64,000 bases of DNA. Origin: Dehalococcoidia bacterium. Lineage in GTDB: Bacteria > Chloroflexota > Dehalococcoidia > Plut-88900. Below the pieces are notes generated by a model. The model was not told the DNA's origin, made no database searches, and saw only the letters and a list, made by a program, of their open reading frames with translations. The DNA lies in the NCBI GenBank assembly GCA_965249275.1, contig CBDFLQ010000005.1, positions 32,001 to 96,000 of the forward strand, read 5' to 3'. Position 1 is the stretch's first letter. Each line of letters starts with the position of its first letter. The position numbers and the translations under genes were made by a program. Positions 44,240 to 62,224 of this stretch are shown piece by piece.

Positions 44240-44470
44240 ACATATACTTTAACGTTGAGCTTGGAGCGGGGTTAGGGGTGGGGGGGACTTATGCCGATTG
44301 AAATGGATGCCTACCTCAACAGGCTCCTAAAGAATGGATACGTATAATATTAAGGTAAACGAACTTAAGCTTGGGGAATCTGATATAGTTGCGAGTCCTT
44401 GCCGCGCAAACGGATGCTTTTCGGGTTTGGTGTAGCGTGCGGAGGGCTGAGATGGAAGGATAACAAGGAT

Positions 44471-44923
44471 ATGGCCCTGAGTAAGCAGGAATTCGACACT
44501 ATTCTCAATGACACTACCAAGACAATTGCCGAAGATATCTCGTGGGAGGGCACTCGGGATTTCTCGGCGCGAGAATTTCGAATCAACATTGATTCCGATG
44601 AGGGATACCCTATATTTGTTAAGGGTTGGTACAATCCTGCATCCGCAAAGTTGTCTTACGCCATCATCCATCGAGGAGTGGGCCGAATCTATGGCCTTGA
44701 TTTAGGAGCAGAGCATCGCAACCCAGATGGTGAATTCGTAGGCGAGAAACACAAGAACTTCTGGGTGCCAGGCAGCCGAGACAAGTGGGCCTATGTACCC
44801 ACCGATATTACCGAGACATGGACCCGACCAGTCGCTGTGTGGAATCAATTCTGTAGAGAGGCGAATCTGCAGCATTTGGGAACAATCCAGAATCCGGTGT
44901 CCCAAGGGGAATTGCTGTTATGA
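44471..44923 (+). CDS. Hypothetical protein (DUF6978-like) with HRNPDG..HK motif
   Basis: RIYGLDLGAEHRNPDGEFVGEKHK; coupled to the next gene by ATGA. Confidence 0.65.
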   Translation: MALSKQEFDTILNDTTKTIAEDISWEGTRDFSAREFRINIDSDEGYPIFVKGWYNPASAKLSYAIIHRGVGRIYGLDLGAEHRNPDGEFVGEKHKNFWVPGSRDKWAYVPTDITETWTRPVAVWNQFCREANLQHLGTIQNPVSQGELLL

Positions 44924-45699
44924 ACGTACACGAGCTTTGCGGTGCCGTTGGCAAGACTTTGCCTCCTCTCTTCGTGTGCTCGCCCGCTCCGCAAGAGGGA
45001 GTGCGAGTACGTACCCCATTACTGTATCCAGACGGTGGGCTTGTAGACGTGTTCGTTCTGGAGCGTAGCAATGGTTACATTATCACGGACCATGGAGATG
45101 CGCTGGGCTGGCTTGGGTTGCAATCAGTAAGCCGACGCCTTTCTCCGAAACAGAATTTGCTGGTCAAAGATGTTTGCCAAACTCTCGGCCTTCAGTTATT
45201 CCACAACCAGTTAGTCCTGCGTTCGGTACCAAACAACTCACTAGGAGAATCGGTGCTTCGCGTTGCACAAGCAGCCGTCAGGGTCTCCGACTTGTGGTTC
45301 ACATTACGCAGCCATTCACTCCAAACGACTGCAGATGAAGTGGACGAATGGCTAAGCGAAAAGCGAATTCCATTCGAACGCCAAGTGACAAAACAAGGCC
45401 GATCCGCCCAAAGCTGGACTATTGATTTTGAGACTCAGACCGATGATCGGACATCTCTAATTTTCCTACTAAACACGGGGTCTCGAGGAGCTGCCAGACG
45501 GATTGCAGAGCACGTCTTGGCAGGCTGTGTTGACTTGAGTCATCTCAAAGTGGGGCAACCCAACGTAACCTTCGTTTCTTTATTCGACGACACTGAAGAT
45601 GTGTGGCGTCCGGAGGATTTCCAGTTGGTGGAGGATCATTCCGAAATAGCCCATTGGTCTCGCCCCGATGAGCTTGCCAGCATATTGAACCCTTCGTAA
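44920..45699 (+). CDS. DUF1828/DUF1829-like protein
   Basis: RTPLLYPDG.LVDVF, ITDHG, GRS..WTIDF. Confidence 0.75.
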   Translation: MNVHELCGAVGKTLPPLFVCSPAPQEGVRVRTPLLYPDGGLVDVFVLERSNGYIITDHGDALGWLGLQSVSRRLSPKQNLLVKDVCQTLGLQLFHNQLVLRSVPNNSLGESVLRVAQAAVRVSDLWFTLRSHSLQTTADEVDEWLSEKRIPFERQVTKQGRSAQSWTIDFETQTDDRTSLIFLLNTGSRGAARRIAEHVLAGCVDLSHLKVGQPNVTFVSLFDDTEDVWRPEDFQLVEDHSEIAHWSRPDELASILNPS

Positions 45700-50432: not shown

Positions 50433-51512
50433 CTACTCGTACCACCCCGAGGCAAATATCAGCCCGTCGTGCAGCACGGCCCATGTGTGCTTCTGACGCT
50501 CGTCCCCGGTCTCCGGGTTGAGCAGTACGTAGTCCACCCAGCGCCCGGCATCCGTGACGGACAACAAGTCGTCGCCGTAGAAGTACCCCGTGGAGTCCAC
50601 GCGGGTGGCCGGGTCCCGGTTCCTGAACATCGGATTGTGGTGGCCTATCGCGTAGCCGAGTTCGTCAACTATGAAAACGTACCACTGTCCGTCCACGCTC
50701 TCTGTTGTGTTGTAGTAGGCAACAGTGGCTTGTCGCCCCAGCGCGTTGTACAGGTTTATCGCCGACTTCACAAAGCTCTGCGTGTACGCCGGGTTGTCGG
50801 CCTTCATGGGCCCCGCCTCATACCACCCCGACCCAAAGGTCAGCCCGTCATACTCCACCATCCATGAATGCTTAACCTCTACCCCGCCCGTGGCAGGATT
50901 CGGGAACGTGTAGTTGAACCATTCGCCGTCCTCGTCCGCTACTGCCACTACCGCGTCACCGGCCGGATAGTTGTTCGGCCCGACAGCTGCCGAGACGGGA
51001 CGTCCTATGAGGTCAGCGTTGGCGCCATGAGCAATCATCGTCTCCTCTGCGTCGGCTATGAACATGTACCACTGCCCGTCGACGCTCTCCGGCGTGTTGT
51101 AGTGGGCGATGGTCGCTTCCAGCCCTTCAACCTTGTATTTCTCAATTGCTTGCTTCACGAACCACTGGGTGTACTCCTCGACTTCGTACTTCGCAGGCAC
51201 GGGCTCCGGAACAGCCTCCCCCAAGCCCTCAGCAAAGCCCGCCCCGAACAGATCAAAGAAGCCCATTAGGGCATCCTCATCAATATCCATGGGGACAGCT
51301 TCTACCTGGGGCCCCGGAGGCCCGGCGGGGCCTTGGGATCCGGGCGGGCCCGCGAGTCCCGTCGGTCCTGCAGGTCCGGGCGGCCCCGCAGGACCCGGAG
51401 GCCCGGCGCGCCCCTGTTCCCCCTCAGGCCCGACATCCCCCTGGCACGCCACCGTCCCCAGTACAAGAGCTATAAGCAATATTGCCGTTATAAGAAGACG
51501 CATCTGTACCAT
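50433..51512 (-). CDS. Lipoprotein with collagen-like stalk and tandem Cache-like domains
   Basis: Lipobox TVAC, about 15 Gly-X-Y triplets, two copies of YTQ.FV..AI..Y...[10 protein letters not shown]...NP.TG...KH.W...DGL.F.SGWYE. Confidence 0.8.
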
Positions 51513-51800: not shown

Positions 51801-52658
51801 ATGGCCTTAATTCCTCCTTCCTTTATGAACTCGGTTGTTGCCTTGGGAATGCAGGCCCAGGACAAACAAGTTCGATTTATGGGGACCGGGTTCATGTACG
51901 GGTATCCCACCCAGGCTACAGACCAAAACGGTATGCCCACATACTGGACTTTTCTTGTAACCAATCGACACGTGTACACCAAGGCGCGTGACCGTGGCAC
52001 GACGATGCATGCGCGCTTCAACAGGCCCATGGGCGCCGTTTCCCATACTTACCCGATACTATTGAAAGAGCCCGACGGTTCTACGTCCTGGACAATTCAC
52101 CAGGAGGCGGACGTGGCGGTTCTTCCCGTCAATGCCGACCGGCTGCGGGCAGACGGCATCGAGTTCTTTTTCTTCGCCGCCGGTGAGCACACTTACACCC
52201 GGGATGAACTGCGTGCAATCGATGTGAGCGAAGGCGATGGGGTCTTTGTCTTGGGCTTTCCCCTGGGGGAAGCAGGCGATGAACGGAACTACGCTATCGT
52301 GCGCCAGGGAATCTTCGCCCGGGCCCAGGACTGGATTAAGGGCAATGCACAAACATTCCTGATAGACGCTTCCATCTATCCCGGCAACAGTGGAGGCCCG
52401 GTCGTCCTCAAGCCCGAGACCCTCACTATTGAGGGAACAAAACCTAACTGCAGGTCTGGGCTGATCGGCATGGTCTCCGCCTATATCCCTTATCAGGAAA
52501 TCGCAGTCAGTACCCAGACCGACCGACCGAGAATGATATTCGAAGAGAACTCCGGCCTGGGCGTCGTGGTCCCCCATGACGCCATAACCGAGACCATAAA
52601 GGCGGCAGTCGGCAAACTGAACAAAGACCAGACCACCGGAACCAGCGCGCTCACATAA
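51801..52658 (+). CDS. Trypsin-like serine protease, no signal peptide
   Basis: LVTNRHV (His), DVAV (Asp), PGNSGGPV (Ser). Confidence 0.9.
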   Translation: MALIPPSFMNSVVALGMQAQDKQVRFMGTGFMYGYPTQATDQNGMPTYWTFLVTNRHVYTKARDRGTTMHARFNRPMGAVSHTYPILLKEPDGSTSWTIHQEADVAVLPVNADRLRADGIEFFFFAAGEHTYTRDELRAIDVSEGDGVFVLGFPLGEAGDERNYAIVRQGIFARAQDWIKGNAQTFLIDASIYPGNSGGPVVLKPETLTIEGTKPNCRSGLIGMVSAYIPYQEIAVSTQTDRPRMIFEENSGLGVVVPHDAITETIKAAVGKLNKDQTTGTSALT

Positions 52659-52667
52659 TGGGAGGTA

Positions 52668-53066
52668 GTGCGACTAATGGCGATGAAACGGGCCTTCATT
52701 AGTTTTGACTTCGATCACGATGAGGAACTCCGAGATGCCTTAGTAGGGCAATCAAAGAATCCTGTGTCCCCATTTAGAATCGCGGATTGGTCGGTCAAAG
52801 AGGCGTTCACAGGCAATTGGAAAGCAAAGGTGCGTGATCGCATACGCAGGACAGACCTCACAATAGTTATTTGTGGAGAATTTACCCGTGACGCCAAGGG
52901 GATTGCGGCAGAATTGACCATCACCAGAGAAGAGGGAAAGCCTTATTTCCTGCTTTGGGGTCGCCCTAAGAGCACTTGCACTAAGCCAGCAATGGCTCTG
53001 AGCTCAGATAAAATATATAAATGGACTTGGCCTAATTTGCAAGAGCTGATTGCTGGACAAAAGTAG
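52668..53066 (+). CDS. Stand-alone TIR-like domain protein (MTH538/DUF1863, ThsB-like)
   Basis: RAFISFDFDHD, DWSVKE, IVICGE.T...GIAAEL (putative catalytic Glu), WTW.NL; ATG probably 52677 or 52683. Confidence 0.85.
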   Translation: MRLMAMKRAFISFDFDHDEELRDALVGQSKNPVSPFRIADWSVKEAFTGNWKAKVRDRIRRTDLTIVICGEFTRDAKGIAAELTITREEGKPYFLLWGRPKSTCTKPAMALSSDKIYKWTWPNLQELIAGQK

Positions 53067-53583
53067 CTGCATGCCCTGCAATGCTGACAATGGCCTAGTT
53101 CGTCACACAAAAGCGACCTACGGAGATTCGTTTAAGCCAGATTTGCTGGAGCAGTACAAGTTGTATGTGCAGTCAGCTGAGAATGTTAGTGCACGGCGTG
53201 TCGCATCAAGCCGTTACTTGCTGACGATTAACGCTTCTCTAATTGCTTTGTACGGACTTCAGTCCGCAGGATTCGGGCAGAGTTACTGGACATTACTGGT
53301 TCCTGCAATAGGAATTCCTATCTCCATACTCTGGTATCTGATCATCAAGTCTCATGCCAACCTAAATCGCGTGAAATTCCACGTGATCCACGAGTTAGAG
53401 CAACATTTGCCGGCGGAAATGTACAAATATGAATGGCACTTGGCTGAGGAAGGGAAAGGCAAGGCCTATCGGGCCGTGACAACCATAGAACAATGGGTGC
53501 CTATTCTATTCACTTTACTGCACGTCGCTCTGACTATCATGATAAGTCTCGCAATCACTCGTGTCATAGATTGGACGCAGTGA
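53050..53583 (+). CDS. Small 3-TM membrane protein, putative effector
   Basis: EQYKLYV.SAE.VS.RR...YLLTIN, W..II.S..LN.VKF.VI.ELE..LP, IEQWVP; overlaps the TIR gene. Confidence 0.75.
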   Translation: MLDKSSCMPCNADNGLVRHTKATYGDSFKPDLLEQYKLYVQSAENVSARRVASSRYLLTINASLIALYGLQSAGFGQSYWTLLVPAIGIPISILWYLIIKSHANLNRVKFHVIHELEQHLPAEMYKYEWHLAEEGKGKAYRAVTTIEQWVPILFTLLHVALTIMISLAITRVIDWTQ

Positions 53584-53824
53584 CCGCATCACTAGGGCCA
53601 GCATGGAGCGGGCGACCTTAGCCCGTCTATCGGACTCGTACAACGATGAGGATTTGGCCCAGATCTGCCGTCGCTTGTACACTTGTCACCCACCTCCCAG
53701 CCCTTCCCCTCGAGATAACGAGCCACCCTCCACCCCACCCCACCCCCCTTGCCCCCTCATCCACAAATCCTTCATAATCCGGCCATCGGGATCCTGACGC
53801 TGCAGTAGCTCAAGGAGGTCGTGC

Positions 53825-54325
53825 ATGGGTGCTTTGAAGAGTTATGTAGTCCGAGTGGGTTCTTTAGAGCTCGGGATAGTCATCTTCTGGATGCTTTTCT
53901 GGCTCGCCAACGGATTAGCCAAGGTGATTCCCGGCGTCCATATCGGCGTGAAATTCGCCGAGAAGGGCGACACAAACTTCTTCACCGTCACCCTGGACAA
54001 GATGGGTTGGGGCACGAGTCTCGGCGAGTTTGCCTTCTACTTCACGGCGGCCTTTGAACTGCTCGTCGGGGTAATCTTCTTATGGGCCTTGATACAGTTC
54101 TTCATGCGAACCGGTTCGGCAGCGCGTCAGCCGTGGATACTGCTGGGGCTCTTCATCAGCGCCATCATATTCACCGTATTCGCCTTCTCGAACGTCGTTA
54201 CGGCGACCAGCCCGGATGTCCTTTTCTCGCACACGGCCTACTTCGCCTCCGTTGGCGTATCGTGGCTGGTGATCGTCGGCCAGAGCATGTGGATGCGCTC
54301 AAACGGGAACGGCGAAAGCAACTAG
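53825..54325 (+). CDS. Hypothetical 4-TM membrane protein (DoxX-like topology)
   Basis: AAGGAGG RBS; four hydrophobic helices. Confidence 0.7.
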   Translation: MGALKSYVVRVGSLELGIVIFWMLFWLANGLAKVIPGVHIGVKFAEKGDTNFFTVTLDKMGWGTSLGEFAFYFTAAFELLVGVIFLWALIQFFMRTGSAARQPWILLGLFISAIIFTVFAFSNVVTATSPDVLFSHTAYFASVGVSWLVIVGQSMWMRSNGNGESN

Positions 54326-56169: not shown

Positions 56170-57267
56170 TCAGTTTGATGAGCCACCCAGACCTCCGCTG
56201 AAATACCACGCCTGCGAACCCAAGACTTGGGGGTGTTGACCTATCTGCTTCGACAGTTCGGCTGGGAACTCAGATTCGATGGCCTCGATTGCCTCGAAGA
56301 TCAGCGGGCGGGCGAAGTCACCTGGGGAGCCGGACAGAAGCGCCATCCACACTGATGGGTAGTAACGGGCAAGTGTTCCCAAAGCAAATGAGGTCAAGTA
56401 TAGCTTGAAGAATTCGTTGAGCTTGTCGCCGTTAGGGAAGTCCGCGATTCCATGCATCAGTGCTTGGGGCCCCTCTGTTTCATGGAACAGTGGAAACTTG
56501 GACTGATGAGCAGAGCTGGCTTCATGGCGAAATACCAATCCCTGCTGAGGGATTGGAAGTGTGAGATTTGGCCATCCTTTGGGCATTGGTTGAATGGTAA
56601 CGGACCGTTGATCGACCAGTTTCAGAACCTCGTCTGGCGGCTTTGTAAACAGGAGGAAATGGGTTTCCGCCGCATAGGTGGTAACGATCGTCAGGAACCA
56701 CTTTGGGTCTCTGCCGGTTACTCCCTGAAATGAGTGCATGGTCTGTTTGAGTCGAGAGAGCAAATCGCCCAAGGTCAGGAGTCCCCCGGTCGTGCAAAAC
56801 TTGATATCGCCGAGGTCGTGCTGAAGTACTGCCTTTGACTTTGATTGGTGGCTGAAGTATTCCGTATGGTGCACATTGGGAATTGCTTCTACCAACTCAA
56901 GAAACGTGCCACGCTCGGCTTGAATTCCCAAGTCAAGAATATTTTTGATCCCACCACTCATAGTGCCTCGCCAGCCCACCTCTTTCACTCCGTGCGCCTG
57001 CGCCAGTGATTCTGATTTCTTGCTGGCATTCCTCAGGAGGATCGCCCCCCTGGACAAGGACAGCACCCCGTAGTAGAGGAGGAGCGGTTTGACGCTCATA
57101 TCCGATGAGGATGCGCTCTTGAAGTATTCCCGTCCCTGGATGAAGAAGGCGTTAATTTGCCTTGTCTTGGCGGTGTTCATCTCCCTCTGGTGGGTCTGCT
57201 GATACCACGACCTCGCCAGGTCGTATGATTCGAACCGGGAGATGTTGTGCCATTCTTGGTTGGTCAA
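56170..57267 (-). CDS. YaaC-like family protein
   Basis: QGREYF..A.....KPLLLYYG...HG; F.LGTLARYYP..W. Confidence 0.75.
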   Translation of the reverse strand: MTNQEWHNISRFESYDLARSWYQQTHQREMNTAKTRQINAFFIQGREYFKSASSSDMSVKPLLLYYGVLSLSRGAILLRNASKKSESLAQAHGVKEVGWRGTMSGGIKNILDLGIQAERGTFLELVEAIPNVHHTEYFSHQSKSKAVLQHDLGDIKFCTTGGLLTLGDLLSRLKQTMHSFQGVTGRDPKWFLTIVTTYAAETHFLLFTKPPDEVLKLVDQRSVTIQPMPKGWPNLTLPIPQQGLVFRHEASSAHQSKFPLFHETEGPQALMHGIADFPNGDKLNEFFKLYLTSFALGTLARYYPSVWMALLSGSPGDFARPLIFEAIEAIESEFPAELSKQIGQHPQVLGSQAWYFSGGLGGSSN

Positions 57268-60261: not shown

Positions 60262-61329
60262 TTGACTAGGACTACCATCAAACTGAAAGTCGTTCAGGAT
60301 ACCTGCCTCGGACATACTGTGTTCAGAGGGTCAGCGCCCGCTAAGGATATCGTAGAAGCGGGGTGGATAGACTTCCATGATCCAGACCAGAATCCCCTAG
60401 GGTATCAACGTGCTTTTGACAAAACTCGAAGTGAAAAGGCTCGCATATATGCTGAAGGCACAGCTGACGCTTTTTGGCCCGAGTCTATTCTCGCAATTCG
60501 AAGCGATGCCGACCTCCTAGAGGAGGAAGAGGTTGAATGGACGTTTACTCCGGACAGTCCAACAAATGACCATTACGGCACCTTAGAGGTCACTTACACA
60601 CACGAATTGACAAGTAATATAAACGGTGAGGATGTGCCTTGGCGTAGGGCCTTCTCTCAGGTCGACTGCCAACATCGGCTGGGTTCGATGCGCGATTCAG
60701 ACAAGCCCATCACCTTCTGCGTGATTCCGGGAATCAGTCGGCACCAGGAGGCAACATTATTTCAAGTTATCAATAAGAACCAGAAGGGCATTTCAACCTC
60801 CTTGGTGGATACCATAATCTTACTTACTGTTCCTAATCCCACTAACCATATGCTGTGGGCTCGGGATCTCGATGCTGACTTGGCCAGCCCTTTCCACGGT
60901 CTTGTAGACACGGGCGGGCGCGGAAGAAAAAACACCCTAATTACATTTCGCGGCCTTCGGAACAGCCTACAGCAACTGATTCCATCCAGGTACGTCGGCA
61001 ACGGTAGCATCGACTACCAGCAGGGATATACGTTCGCCCGGAATTATTGGCAAGCTGTACATGACGAATGGCCAAAAGAGTTCGGCGATAAGAGCGCGTA
61101 TAAGATGATGGTTAACCCTGGTGTGCTGGCTCTGTCACGCCTTGGTCGACTACTCTTCGAATCCAAGGTCGACGTCCAAGACTTCGGGAAATCTTCGATT
61201 GCAACCTATCTGCAAGGAGGTAAGCCCGATGTAGATTGGTCGGTGGCTGGCCCTTTCAAGGACGCAACAGGGAAGGGTGCCGTAAAGCTGGTGTTTAACC
61301 AGCTCAAGCAATGGTTCGGCACGCCTTGA
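60262..61329 (+). CDS. DGQHR-domain (DndB-like, ParB superfamily) protein, DCQHR variant
   Basis: GYQR, SQVDCQHRL, EATLFQVINKNQKGI. Confidence 0.8.
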   Translation: MTRTTIKLKVVQDTCLGHTVFRGSAPAKDIVEAGWIDFHDPDQNPLGYQRAFDKTRSEKARIYAEGTADAFWPESILAIRSDADLLEEEEVEWTFTPDSPTNDHYGTLEVTYTHELTSNINGEDVPWRRAFSQVDCQHRLGSMRDSDKPITFCVIPGISRHQEATLFQVINKNQKGISTSLVDTIILLTVPNPTNHMLWARDLDADLASPFHGLVDTGGRGRKNTLITFRGLRNSLQQLIPSRYVGNGSIDYQQGYTFARNYWQAVHDEWPKEFGDKSAYKMMVNPGVLALSRLGRLLFESKVDVQDFGKSSIATYLQGGKPDVDWSVAGPFKDATGKGAVKLVFNQLKQWFGTP

Positions 61330-61354
61330 TGTCCGCAAGCCTGGACAGCGCCTC

Positions 61355-62224
61355 ATGAGCGCTATCGTAGTAGGCAACGCAGCTTCTGTCCTCAATAGGA
61401 TTCCAGCGGGATTGGCCCAAGCCTGCATCACCAGCCCGCCGTATTGGGGTCTGCGTGACTATGAATTGGCCCAACAGATTGGAAGCGAGGATAATTTATC
61501 CACCTACCTTCGCCGTCTTGCTCGCGTCTTCGCGAAACTAAGAGCCGTAGTGAGGCCTGACGGCGTTCTGTGGCTGAACATAGGTGACACCTATACCAGC
61601 GGAAACAGAGGGTGGCGAGCTGAGGACAAACGGAATCCCGCTAGGGCAAGAGGCTGGAGGCCCGACAACCCTCCGGGAATGAAGAATAAAGAGCTTGTTG
61701 GCCTTCCGTGGGAGTTAGCGCGGGTCATCCGCCGACGAGGTTGGTACCTTCGCTCTGAAATTATCTGGCAGAAAACCAACAACCAACCTGAATCGGTGAA
61801 GGATCGTCCGACAAGATCCCATGAACAACTCTTCTTATTCTCTAACGCAGAACAGTACTATTACAACAGTCAAGAAATCGCTGAGCCTGCGAACGGTGAC
61901 GGACGGACGAAGAACCGCAGATCAGTGTGGCCTTTACAAACTGAACCGTTCAACGGAAATCACTTTGCCGTCTTCCCGACTGAATTGGTGCGGTTGTGTA
62001 TTCTTGCCAGCACCCGTCAGGGCGACCTCGTTATAGACCCCTTTTTCGGATCTGGAACTGTCGGGGTAGTTTGTCGGGAACTAGGAAGACGTTTCCTAGG
62101 CATTGAACTAAACTCCGAATACGCCGAAATCGCTAGAACTCGCCTTGAGCTTCCACCCGAGTCCGTTATTAGGTCCCGCGCGACGGATTTGAGTTCGATA
62201 TTGTCTTTGCTGAACACCAACTAA
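61355..62224 (+). CDS. Site-specific DNA methyltransferase (beta class)
   Basis: TSPPYWGLRDY, PESVKDRPT, HFAVFP, DPFFGSGT. Confidence 0.93.
   Translation: MSAIVVGNAASVLNRIPAGLAQACITSPPYWGLRDYELAQQIGSEDNLSTYLRRLARVFAKLRAVVRPDGVLWLNIGDTYTSGNRGWRAEDKRNPARARGWRPDNPPGMKNKELVGLPWELARVIRRRGWYLRSEIIWQKTNNQPESVKDRPTRSHEQLFLFSNAEQYYYNSQEIAEPANGDGRTKNRRSVWPLQTEPFNGNHFAVFPTELVRLCILASTRQGDLVIDPFFGSGTVGVVCRELGRRFLGIELNSEYAEIARTRLELPPESVIRSRATDLSSILSLLNTN

Follow-up and report, generated by a model that had tools for sequence, protein, structure and literature searches.

A TIR and 8xMP membrane protein cassette behind a protease gene in a Dehalococcoidia genome is a likely Thoeris variant

The 64,000-nucleotide stretch of Dehalococcoidia DNA analysed here (the window) contained a trypsin-like protease gene followed by a TIR gene and a small membrane protein gene of the 8xMP family. 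Direct comparison of the site with its relatives showed that the TIR and 8xMP genes were a cassette inserted right behind the protease stop codon. Sequence comparisons led us to consider it likely that this cassette is a variant of the Thoeris defence system, in which a TIR-made signal would gate an oligomeric 8xMP membrane effector and for which the protease would not be required. TIR-8xMP is a mobile and probably anti-phage pair. An earlier note on this DNA had read all three genes as one candidate defence system.

Gene layout and the insertion site

The protease, TIR, and membrane protein reading frames were all co-oriented in the window (Table 1), and the open reading frame list thus bore out what the earlier note had said of their orientation. 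The spacing given there was revised. The most likely start of the TIR gene was ATG 52677, which lies 11 nt past a GGGAGG motif and gives a protein of 129 aa, the usual length among homologues; with this start, the gap between the protease and TIR genes was 18 bp and not 9 bp. Similarly, the 8xMP gene most likely started at ATG 53071, 4 bp past the TIR stop, which gives 170 aa as in most homologues and removes the overlap that had been read between the last two genes. The GC contents of the TIR gene (47.6%), the 8xMP gene (47.4%), and the insertion as a whole (49.4%) were compared with those of the protease gene (56.2%) and the genome (59.0%), and the last two genes were indeed AT-richer, as noted before. 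A scan for promoters and terminators produced matches at chance level. One RNA run yielded a single contig, which covered the right flank only, and RNA runs contained only small shares of the sequence words.

Table 1. Features at the protease-TIR-8xMP locus (window coordinates)
Feature	Position	Strand	Basis
Left flank: collagen-repeat/Cache-domain protein gene, kept in relatives	50433..51512	-	Pfam, synteny
Trypsin-like serine protease, 285 aa, PDC-S45-like	51801..52658	+	PF13365, PADLOC model, triad
Strain-variable insertion with TIR and 8xMP, 1,071 bp	52659..53729		Missing from orthologous site in relatives
ThsB-type TIR of the type IV Thoeris (PsTIR-like) lineage, 129 aa, with catalytic Glu79	52677..53066	+	PF08937
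Predicted oligomeric effector: three-helix membrane protein of the 8xMP family (PF24838), 170 aa	53071..53583	+	Pfam, AF2
Right flank: gene for a small membrane protein, conserved, with a separate upstream region and beyond the insertion	53825..54325	+	Synteny

The insertion was absent from the orthologous site in four genomes of the same genus that carried the protease gene (G008, G010, G005, and G011). In the case of G008, DNA identity was 93-94% on both sides, and the protease stop was followed by window position 53730 with 12 other bases between. A different 655-bp stretch sat in place of the insertion in G011, an unrelated gene occupied the slot in G007, and the right-flank gene came directly after the protease in G008, G010, and G005. 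The joint 52658>53730, which skips the insert exactly, was present in contigs from three of four sequencing runs, and the summed depth of the run contigs was far lower across the insert than across the flanks. The insert itself was recovered from X1, possibly the source sample, in a 1,172-bp contig that crossed it entirely with 0 differences, and from X4, a run of another study, in a 1,086-bp contig that covered 52632-53670 from the protease end with 17 differences. Because the run contigs showed the joint as well as the insert, both forms of the site exist. No second copy of the insertion was found in the genome. Among 12 genomes of the order (completeness 80-94%), the protease occurred in five and 8xMP in three, and both occurred only in the window's genome. 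The tight packing of the protease and TIR genes therefore reflects where the cassette was inserted and does not mark a conserved operon, and the locus illustrates how distinct defence cassettes that accumulate at a single site may look like an operon.

Other variable or defence-like genes were observed in the window. A two-gene cassette of DUF6978 and DUF1828 (window 44399-45699, + strand, about 51% GC) matched PADLOC PDC-M24A/B at 4.5e-58 and 1.9e-83. A YaaC-like gene (PF14175; window 56170-57267, - strand) occupied another variable slot, which lacked the gene in G008 and G010 and held a different gene in G011. At window 60262-62224 (+ strand), an N6/N4 DNA methyltransferase gene came after a DGQHR-domain gene, and the two probably make up a further defence cassette.

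The TIR-8xMP pair and the lineage of its TIR

In Pfam searches, the third gene matched PF24838 (8xMP) at 1.2e-35, and the TIR matched ThsB_TIR (PF08937) at 3.2e-6, above the cut-off. The association between the two families was examined at 8xMP loci taken as the best 80 of 232 genome matches and the best 80 of 443 metagenome matches, many of which were kin (Dehalococcoidia) or duplicates; the closest homologues came from Dehalococcoidia assemblies. Among these best matches, 141 loci had 600 nt or more of upstream sequence, and a TIR gene lay directly upstream of 8xMP at 130 of them (74 of 79 genome loci and 56 of 62 metagenome loci). The pair was found in Pseudomonadota, Cyanobacteriota, Actinomycetota, Chloroflexota, and Halobacteria, and type I restriction-modification (RM) genes lay within 4 kb of 8xMP at 44 of the 79 genome loci (best 80 of 232). 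We also inspected 13 of 34 plasmid records with 8xMP: eight had an annotated adjacent TIR (hosts in Pseudomonadota, Cyanobacteriota, Actinomycetota, Bacillota, and Halobacteria), four had no annotated TIR beside 8xMP, and one was unannotated. This conserved adjacency across several phyla suggested that the TIR is coupled to a pore-like membrane protein, as the earlier note had supposed.

An adjacent TIR of the window's family was missing from the other 11 of the 141 best-match loci and from L206, L207, L276, and L277. Since TIR-free loci and fusions to unrelated domains exist, gene order and domain content indicate that not every 8xMP is TIR-gated. In predicted fusions, 8xMP formed the C-terminal domain of long proteins with a PQQ propeller/NosD, a PGF-pre-PGF, or an unassigned N-terminus (P0383, P0362, and L153:70-1653). 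At L207:328-4435, where none of the window's TIR family was detected, an NB-ARC/WD40 gene immediately precedes the 8xMP gene, and the membrane protein may there be gated by a STAND protein.

Several TIR-8xMP loci carried additional features. At an archaeal locus (L209:3507-7627), the pair was followed by an uncharacterised gene, a PfkB kinase gene, and a 7-cyano-7-deazaguanine synthase gene, which recall the Cap9-type ancillary genes that have been reported for some Thoeris operons. The TIRs upstream of 8xMP at L051:2666-3997, L069:2972-3970, and L122:2355-3329 had N-terminal extensions of 200-300 aa that matched no Pfam family and are candidate sensor domains. At L059, the TIR was interrupted by a transposase.

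The Glu of the GIAAEL motif (Glu79), which the earlier reading had picked out as retained, was invariant in all 125 aligned TIRs. The best PDB match of the TIR was BcTir 8FZ9 (profile E 1.8e-8; 10.1101/2023.05.26.542521), which is too distant for predicting the TIR signal. A relationship was found with type IV Thoeris, which consists of a TIR and the caspase-like protein ThsE and uses the signal N7-cADPR, as described by Rousset et al. (10.1101/2024.10.24.620036). Specifically, the window TIR was 52-61% identical to nine caspase-paired TIRs and 38% identical to the TIR of L246, which by hand count shares about 91 of 122 positions with the published PsTIR (PsTIR sequence from the PMC13243611 supplement). 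A hand count against the published EcTIR, also taken from that supplement, gave about 76 of 132 positions for the 8xMP-paired TIR of L205; the EcTIR lineage differs from the PsTIR lineage. The catalytic Cys was at position 129 in four of nine caspases checked, the same number as in PsCaspase C129.

Searches anchored on the TIR returned both partners. On viral contigs (n = 9), the downstream gene was 8xMP at five loci, a caspase gene at three, and neither at one; in the 401-genome sample (n = 10), it was 8xMP at one (the seed genome), a caspase gene at five, and neither at four, which were weaker matches. From 53 plasmid records, ten TIR loci were picked after four with a known 8xMP gene had been set aside, and each of the ten had a caspase gene (eight annotated and two found by HMM). 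A viral scan with a single 8xMP sequence gave no match.

Trees were built on subsets of 69 and 41 of the 182 TIR rows, which had been dereplicated at 85% to 120. In the 41-TIR tree, for which 20 8xMP rows were hand-picked from 87 and the divergent L077, L205, and L209 were excluded, 8xMP-paired and caspase-paired TIRs interleaved, and the starred branches forced at least six changes of partner. The caspase grouping was tested after a quick tree had been inspected: none of 200 bootstrap trees had one caspase clade, and a single clade was rejected (AU p=1.04e-6). The closest TIR pairs with different partners were 84, 77, 77, and 75% identical. These comparisons place the window TIR in the type IV Thoeris lineage and indicate that swapping between caspase and 8xMP on the same TIR lineage was repeated. 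The likeness to type IV thus extends over the lineage, the short TIR, the catalytic Glu at 79, the interleaving of TIRs, and three loci with both effectors (L274, L137, and L208). Because each of these three loci has two TIRs, separate signals are possible there. The difference lies in the effector of the window, which is a 170-aa membrane protein and not a caspase; the adjacent serine protease is trypsin-fold and unlinked.

On the plasmid locus L274:1495-3808, the genes were co-oriented in the order caspase-TIR-8xMP-TIR, and the last TIR was EcTIR-like by eye. Small genes with a weak RyR-domain match followed the type IV caspase gene in two distant hosts (L246:3855-4130 and L208:1900-2184).

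The membrane effector, its signal, and other wirings

The earlier description of the third gene as a small multi-TM protein agreed with the AF2 model, which predicted three long helices (residues 21-64, 71-110, and 131-162) at pLDDT 91; by hydropathy, helices two and three were clear and helix one was marginal. A model of four copies scored 0.46 versus 0.00 for the best control, with contacts agreeing to at least 73% and a partner pLDDT of 67 or more, so self-association, which had been put forward as something to model, was predicted. In calibration, 20 of 30 solved homodimers came up to the mark, as did 1 of 23 monomers, which is a rough guide for four copies. Conserved residues of the family were Q28, R42, R43, N99, K102, E110, E121, W122, and E140, and the modelled interface held conserved Q28, K102, L113, P114, E121, Y133, and E140, plus R42. 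Two residues of the window's 8xMP protein differed from the family consensus: S47, where 82% of the family have N, and H95, where 79% have Y.

Sequence comparison of 8xMP with PDB gave no match, and Foldseek gave none at E 0.001. VIA-align returned generic helical bundles only (best Z 10.2, rmsd 2.2, 96 aligned), with Rip1 not among its rows, and the ESM Atlas returned solely 8xMP clusters and unnamed clusters. The lack of a specific structural match does not imply a new fold.

None of the effectors of Thoeris types I-III (SIR2-SLOG, Macro-TM, and SLOG) was matched in the three genes or flanks by Pfam, PADLOC, or NCBIfam, and the earlier claim that the trio has no SIR2, Macro, SLOG, or caspase gene held in these searches. 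The type IV caspase-like effector was likewise absent: the downstream gene was 8xMP, and the upstream protease was Trypsin_2, not Peptidase_C14. The general Thoeris features were present, namely a ThsB-type TIR with the catalytic Glu and an operon with a separate effector gene (130 of 141 loci among the best matches). The idea that a TIR with a small membrane protein was undescribed did not survive, since two examples, types V and VII, have been verified (Yirmiya et al. 2025, 10.64898/2025.12.03.692087). Nor was the trio wholly unnamed, as the third gene belongs to the named family PF24838 and the protease matches a PADLOC model.

Type V consists of ThsB and ThsF (DUF2270) and uses 3'cADPR. 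ThsF is described in the same preprint as having three TM helices, no separate ligand domain, and a modelled homo-oligomer with charged residues between protomers. TIR-8xMP resembles type V in its two genes and three-helix effector, and the modelled 8xMP interface resembles the inter-protomer pockets proposed for ThsF, but the effector family is PF24838 and not PF10028. An identification of 8xMP with ThsF/DUF2270 was tried on a by-eye likeness of motifs and was rejected: there was no Pfam match, and hhalign gave a probability of 0.1%, below the reversed control. This comparison used 29 DUF2270 sequences from one phylum that were not TIR-selected and were of low diversity (Neff 3). The best HMM E-value of DUF2270 against the collected 8xMP proteins was 0.03, and a remote relationship is possible. 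Type VII, which consists of ThsB and the SLATT protein ThsH, uses cADPR, a signal shared with type VIII; in these two types, two unrelated effectors read one signal, sometimes in one operon (Yirmiya et al. 2025). By analogy, type VII would share with TIR-8xMP a TIR-gated small membrane effector. The two differ in that 8xMP had no SLATT match in Pfam at E 0.1 and that a SLATT-paired TIR (L271) fell outside the 8xMP/caspase group in our sample. Judged by these profile matches, TIR-8xMP lacks the effectors of types I-V and VII.

On the basis of known Thoeris biology, we infer that phage infection would lead the TIR to make a cyclic ADP-ribose-type signal from NAD+. The binding site for this signal would consist of polar and basic residues that are conserved and lie on the soluble side, between the protomers of 8xMP. 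The oligomer would open or breach the membrane, and the infected cell would die or arrest. Because the swaps were repeated on near-identical TIRs, both effectors may read N7-cADPR, the likeliest signal, and we give this signal, which is suggested by partner swapping only, about an even chance. Against it, the window TIR is 38% identical to the PsTIR-like L246, and its caspase-paired relatives at 52-61% are known from sequence alone. TIR kinship does not fix the signal, because Yirmiya et al. 2025 have one TIR cluster in which partners of type I, type IV, and type V (DUF2270) occur together.

A broader proposal, which we advance tentatively and rate somewhat short of even, is that PF24838 is a membrane receptor-pore for N7-cADPR and a second type IV effector, exchanged with the caspase in bacteria and archaea. 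If true, this would assign a function to the uncharacterised 8xMP family and place a nucleotide-binding site between transmembrane protomers. The type IV caspase is the one receiver of N7-cADPR described in the sources consulted. As partners are swapped on TIRs with up to 84% identity, a second receiver can be sought directly and at low cost, for which a caspase reporter, N7-cADPR, and the TadIV-1 sponge exist. A confirmed second receiver would provide a function for a family of 2,779 clusters (at 50% identity) and extend the pattern of one signal and two effectors seen in types VII and VIII.

It is possible, although we doubt it, that the TIR-gated pore belongs to one of the types verified so far, with type IX (ThsJ) as the most plausible candidate, or that it uses another signal (3'cADPR or an unnamed one). 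Yirmiya et al. 2025 list 29 putative Thoeris types, many with TM effectors, and verified types V-XI, and their main text names ThsJ without a description; 8xMP may be one of the 29 predicted types, or ThsJ. Given how common 8xMP is, a systematic screen probably met it, and the mixing of signals within TIR clusters in that study favours a different signal. However, none of the verified new-type TIRs is reported there to have activated the type IV caspase, yet the 8xMP TIRs interleave with those of type IV. In addition, a literature search, mostly outside subscription papers, found nothing that linked 8xMP, PF24838, or the name 'RipA family' to defence. Further context was provided by PMC13434031, PMC13712596, PMC13069673, PMC13243611, 10.64898/2026.08.12.744502, and 10.1101/2024.10.26.620412.

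An unlikely alternative, drawn by analogy, is that the roles are reversed, with 8xMP as a Rip1-like membrane sensor or scaffold and the TIR as an NAD+-depleting effector, or that a constitutive TIR signal keeps 8xMP off in a Panoptes-like guard. The occurrence of 8xMP without a TIR and beside an NB-ARC/WD40 gene fits a reversed order, Yirmiya et al. 2025 caution that unverified TIRs could be effectors, and inverted logic is known for OptS/OptE. Near-identical TIRs serve the type IV caspase, however, and PsTIR signals with only mild NAD+ loss; moreover, the TIR is a minimal 129-aa domain that lacks a ligand-binding domain. We therefore retain the reading in which the TIR signals to 8xMP.

The protease as an independent neighbour

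The protease matched Trypsin_2 (PF13365) at 1.7e-10 in Pfam. Its His/Asp/Ser triad was intact, as had been observed before (H57/D104/S197; 119 of 120 homologues retained each of the motifs), and no signal peptide was seen, as judged by eye and hydropathy alone, in line with the earlier reading. In the PADLOC search, which had been proposed earlier as a check, the TIR-8xMP pair matched no type I-III effector, and residues 9-272 of the protease matched positions 21-286 of the 293 in the PDC-S45 model (4e-26, a profile match alone). PDC-S45 is a single-gene phage defence candidate from gene embedding (Payne et al., 10.1101/2024.01.29.577857), and the main text of that preprint does not name S45. 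Consistent with a single-gene candidate, the window protease family occurred alone or in RM slots. A literature search, mostly outside subscription papers, found no paper on a TIR with a trypsin-like protease.

The neighbourhood counts likewise separated the protease from the TIR module. From the 8xMP side, among 159 best-match loci (120 with at least 1.5 kb upstream), the protease HMM matched only L031 and L054; a protease gene thus adjoined the pair upstream at 2 of 120 loci and was absent from 118. At both, the protease gene was directly upstream of TIR-8xMP in a type I RM slot, and the two proteases were 73% alike, so the arrangement was probably one event. From the protease side, 29 places were found in 26 of 401 genomes of the class, and the pair lay within 1.5 kb at one of them (the window's genome) and was absent at 28. 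The protease occurred without 8xMP in G005, G008, G010, and G011, and since these close relatives carry it alone at the site, its suggested role as a sensor, activator, or second effector was not upheld.

We rejected as very unlikely a three-gene system in which the protease would sense phage, process the TIR or 8xMP, or serve as a second effector: the tight spacing and the protease-TIR-8xMP order at L031, L054, and, loosely, G569 favour it, but the co-occurrence counts, the empty site in relatives and three runs, the differing GC content, and a slot in another genus that holds either the protease or TIR-8xMP all stand against it. The protease is an independent neighbour, separate from the TIR module. 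In G569, TIR-8xMP was two genes away from a protease gene. The slot just mentioned is a single chromosomal site in one genus (rows L236, L237, and L238), which held the protease in G533 and G581 and TIR-8xMP in G569; its flanks were an M50-like protease gene and an ispG-like gene, which we take to be housekeeping genes. By gene content, the protease and TIR-8xMP appear to behave as interchangeable cargo in this slot.
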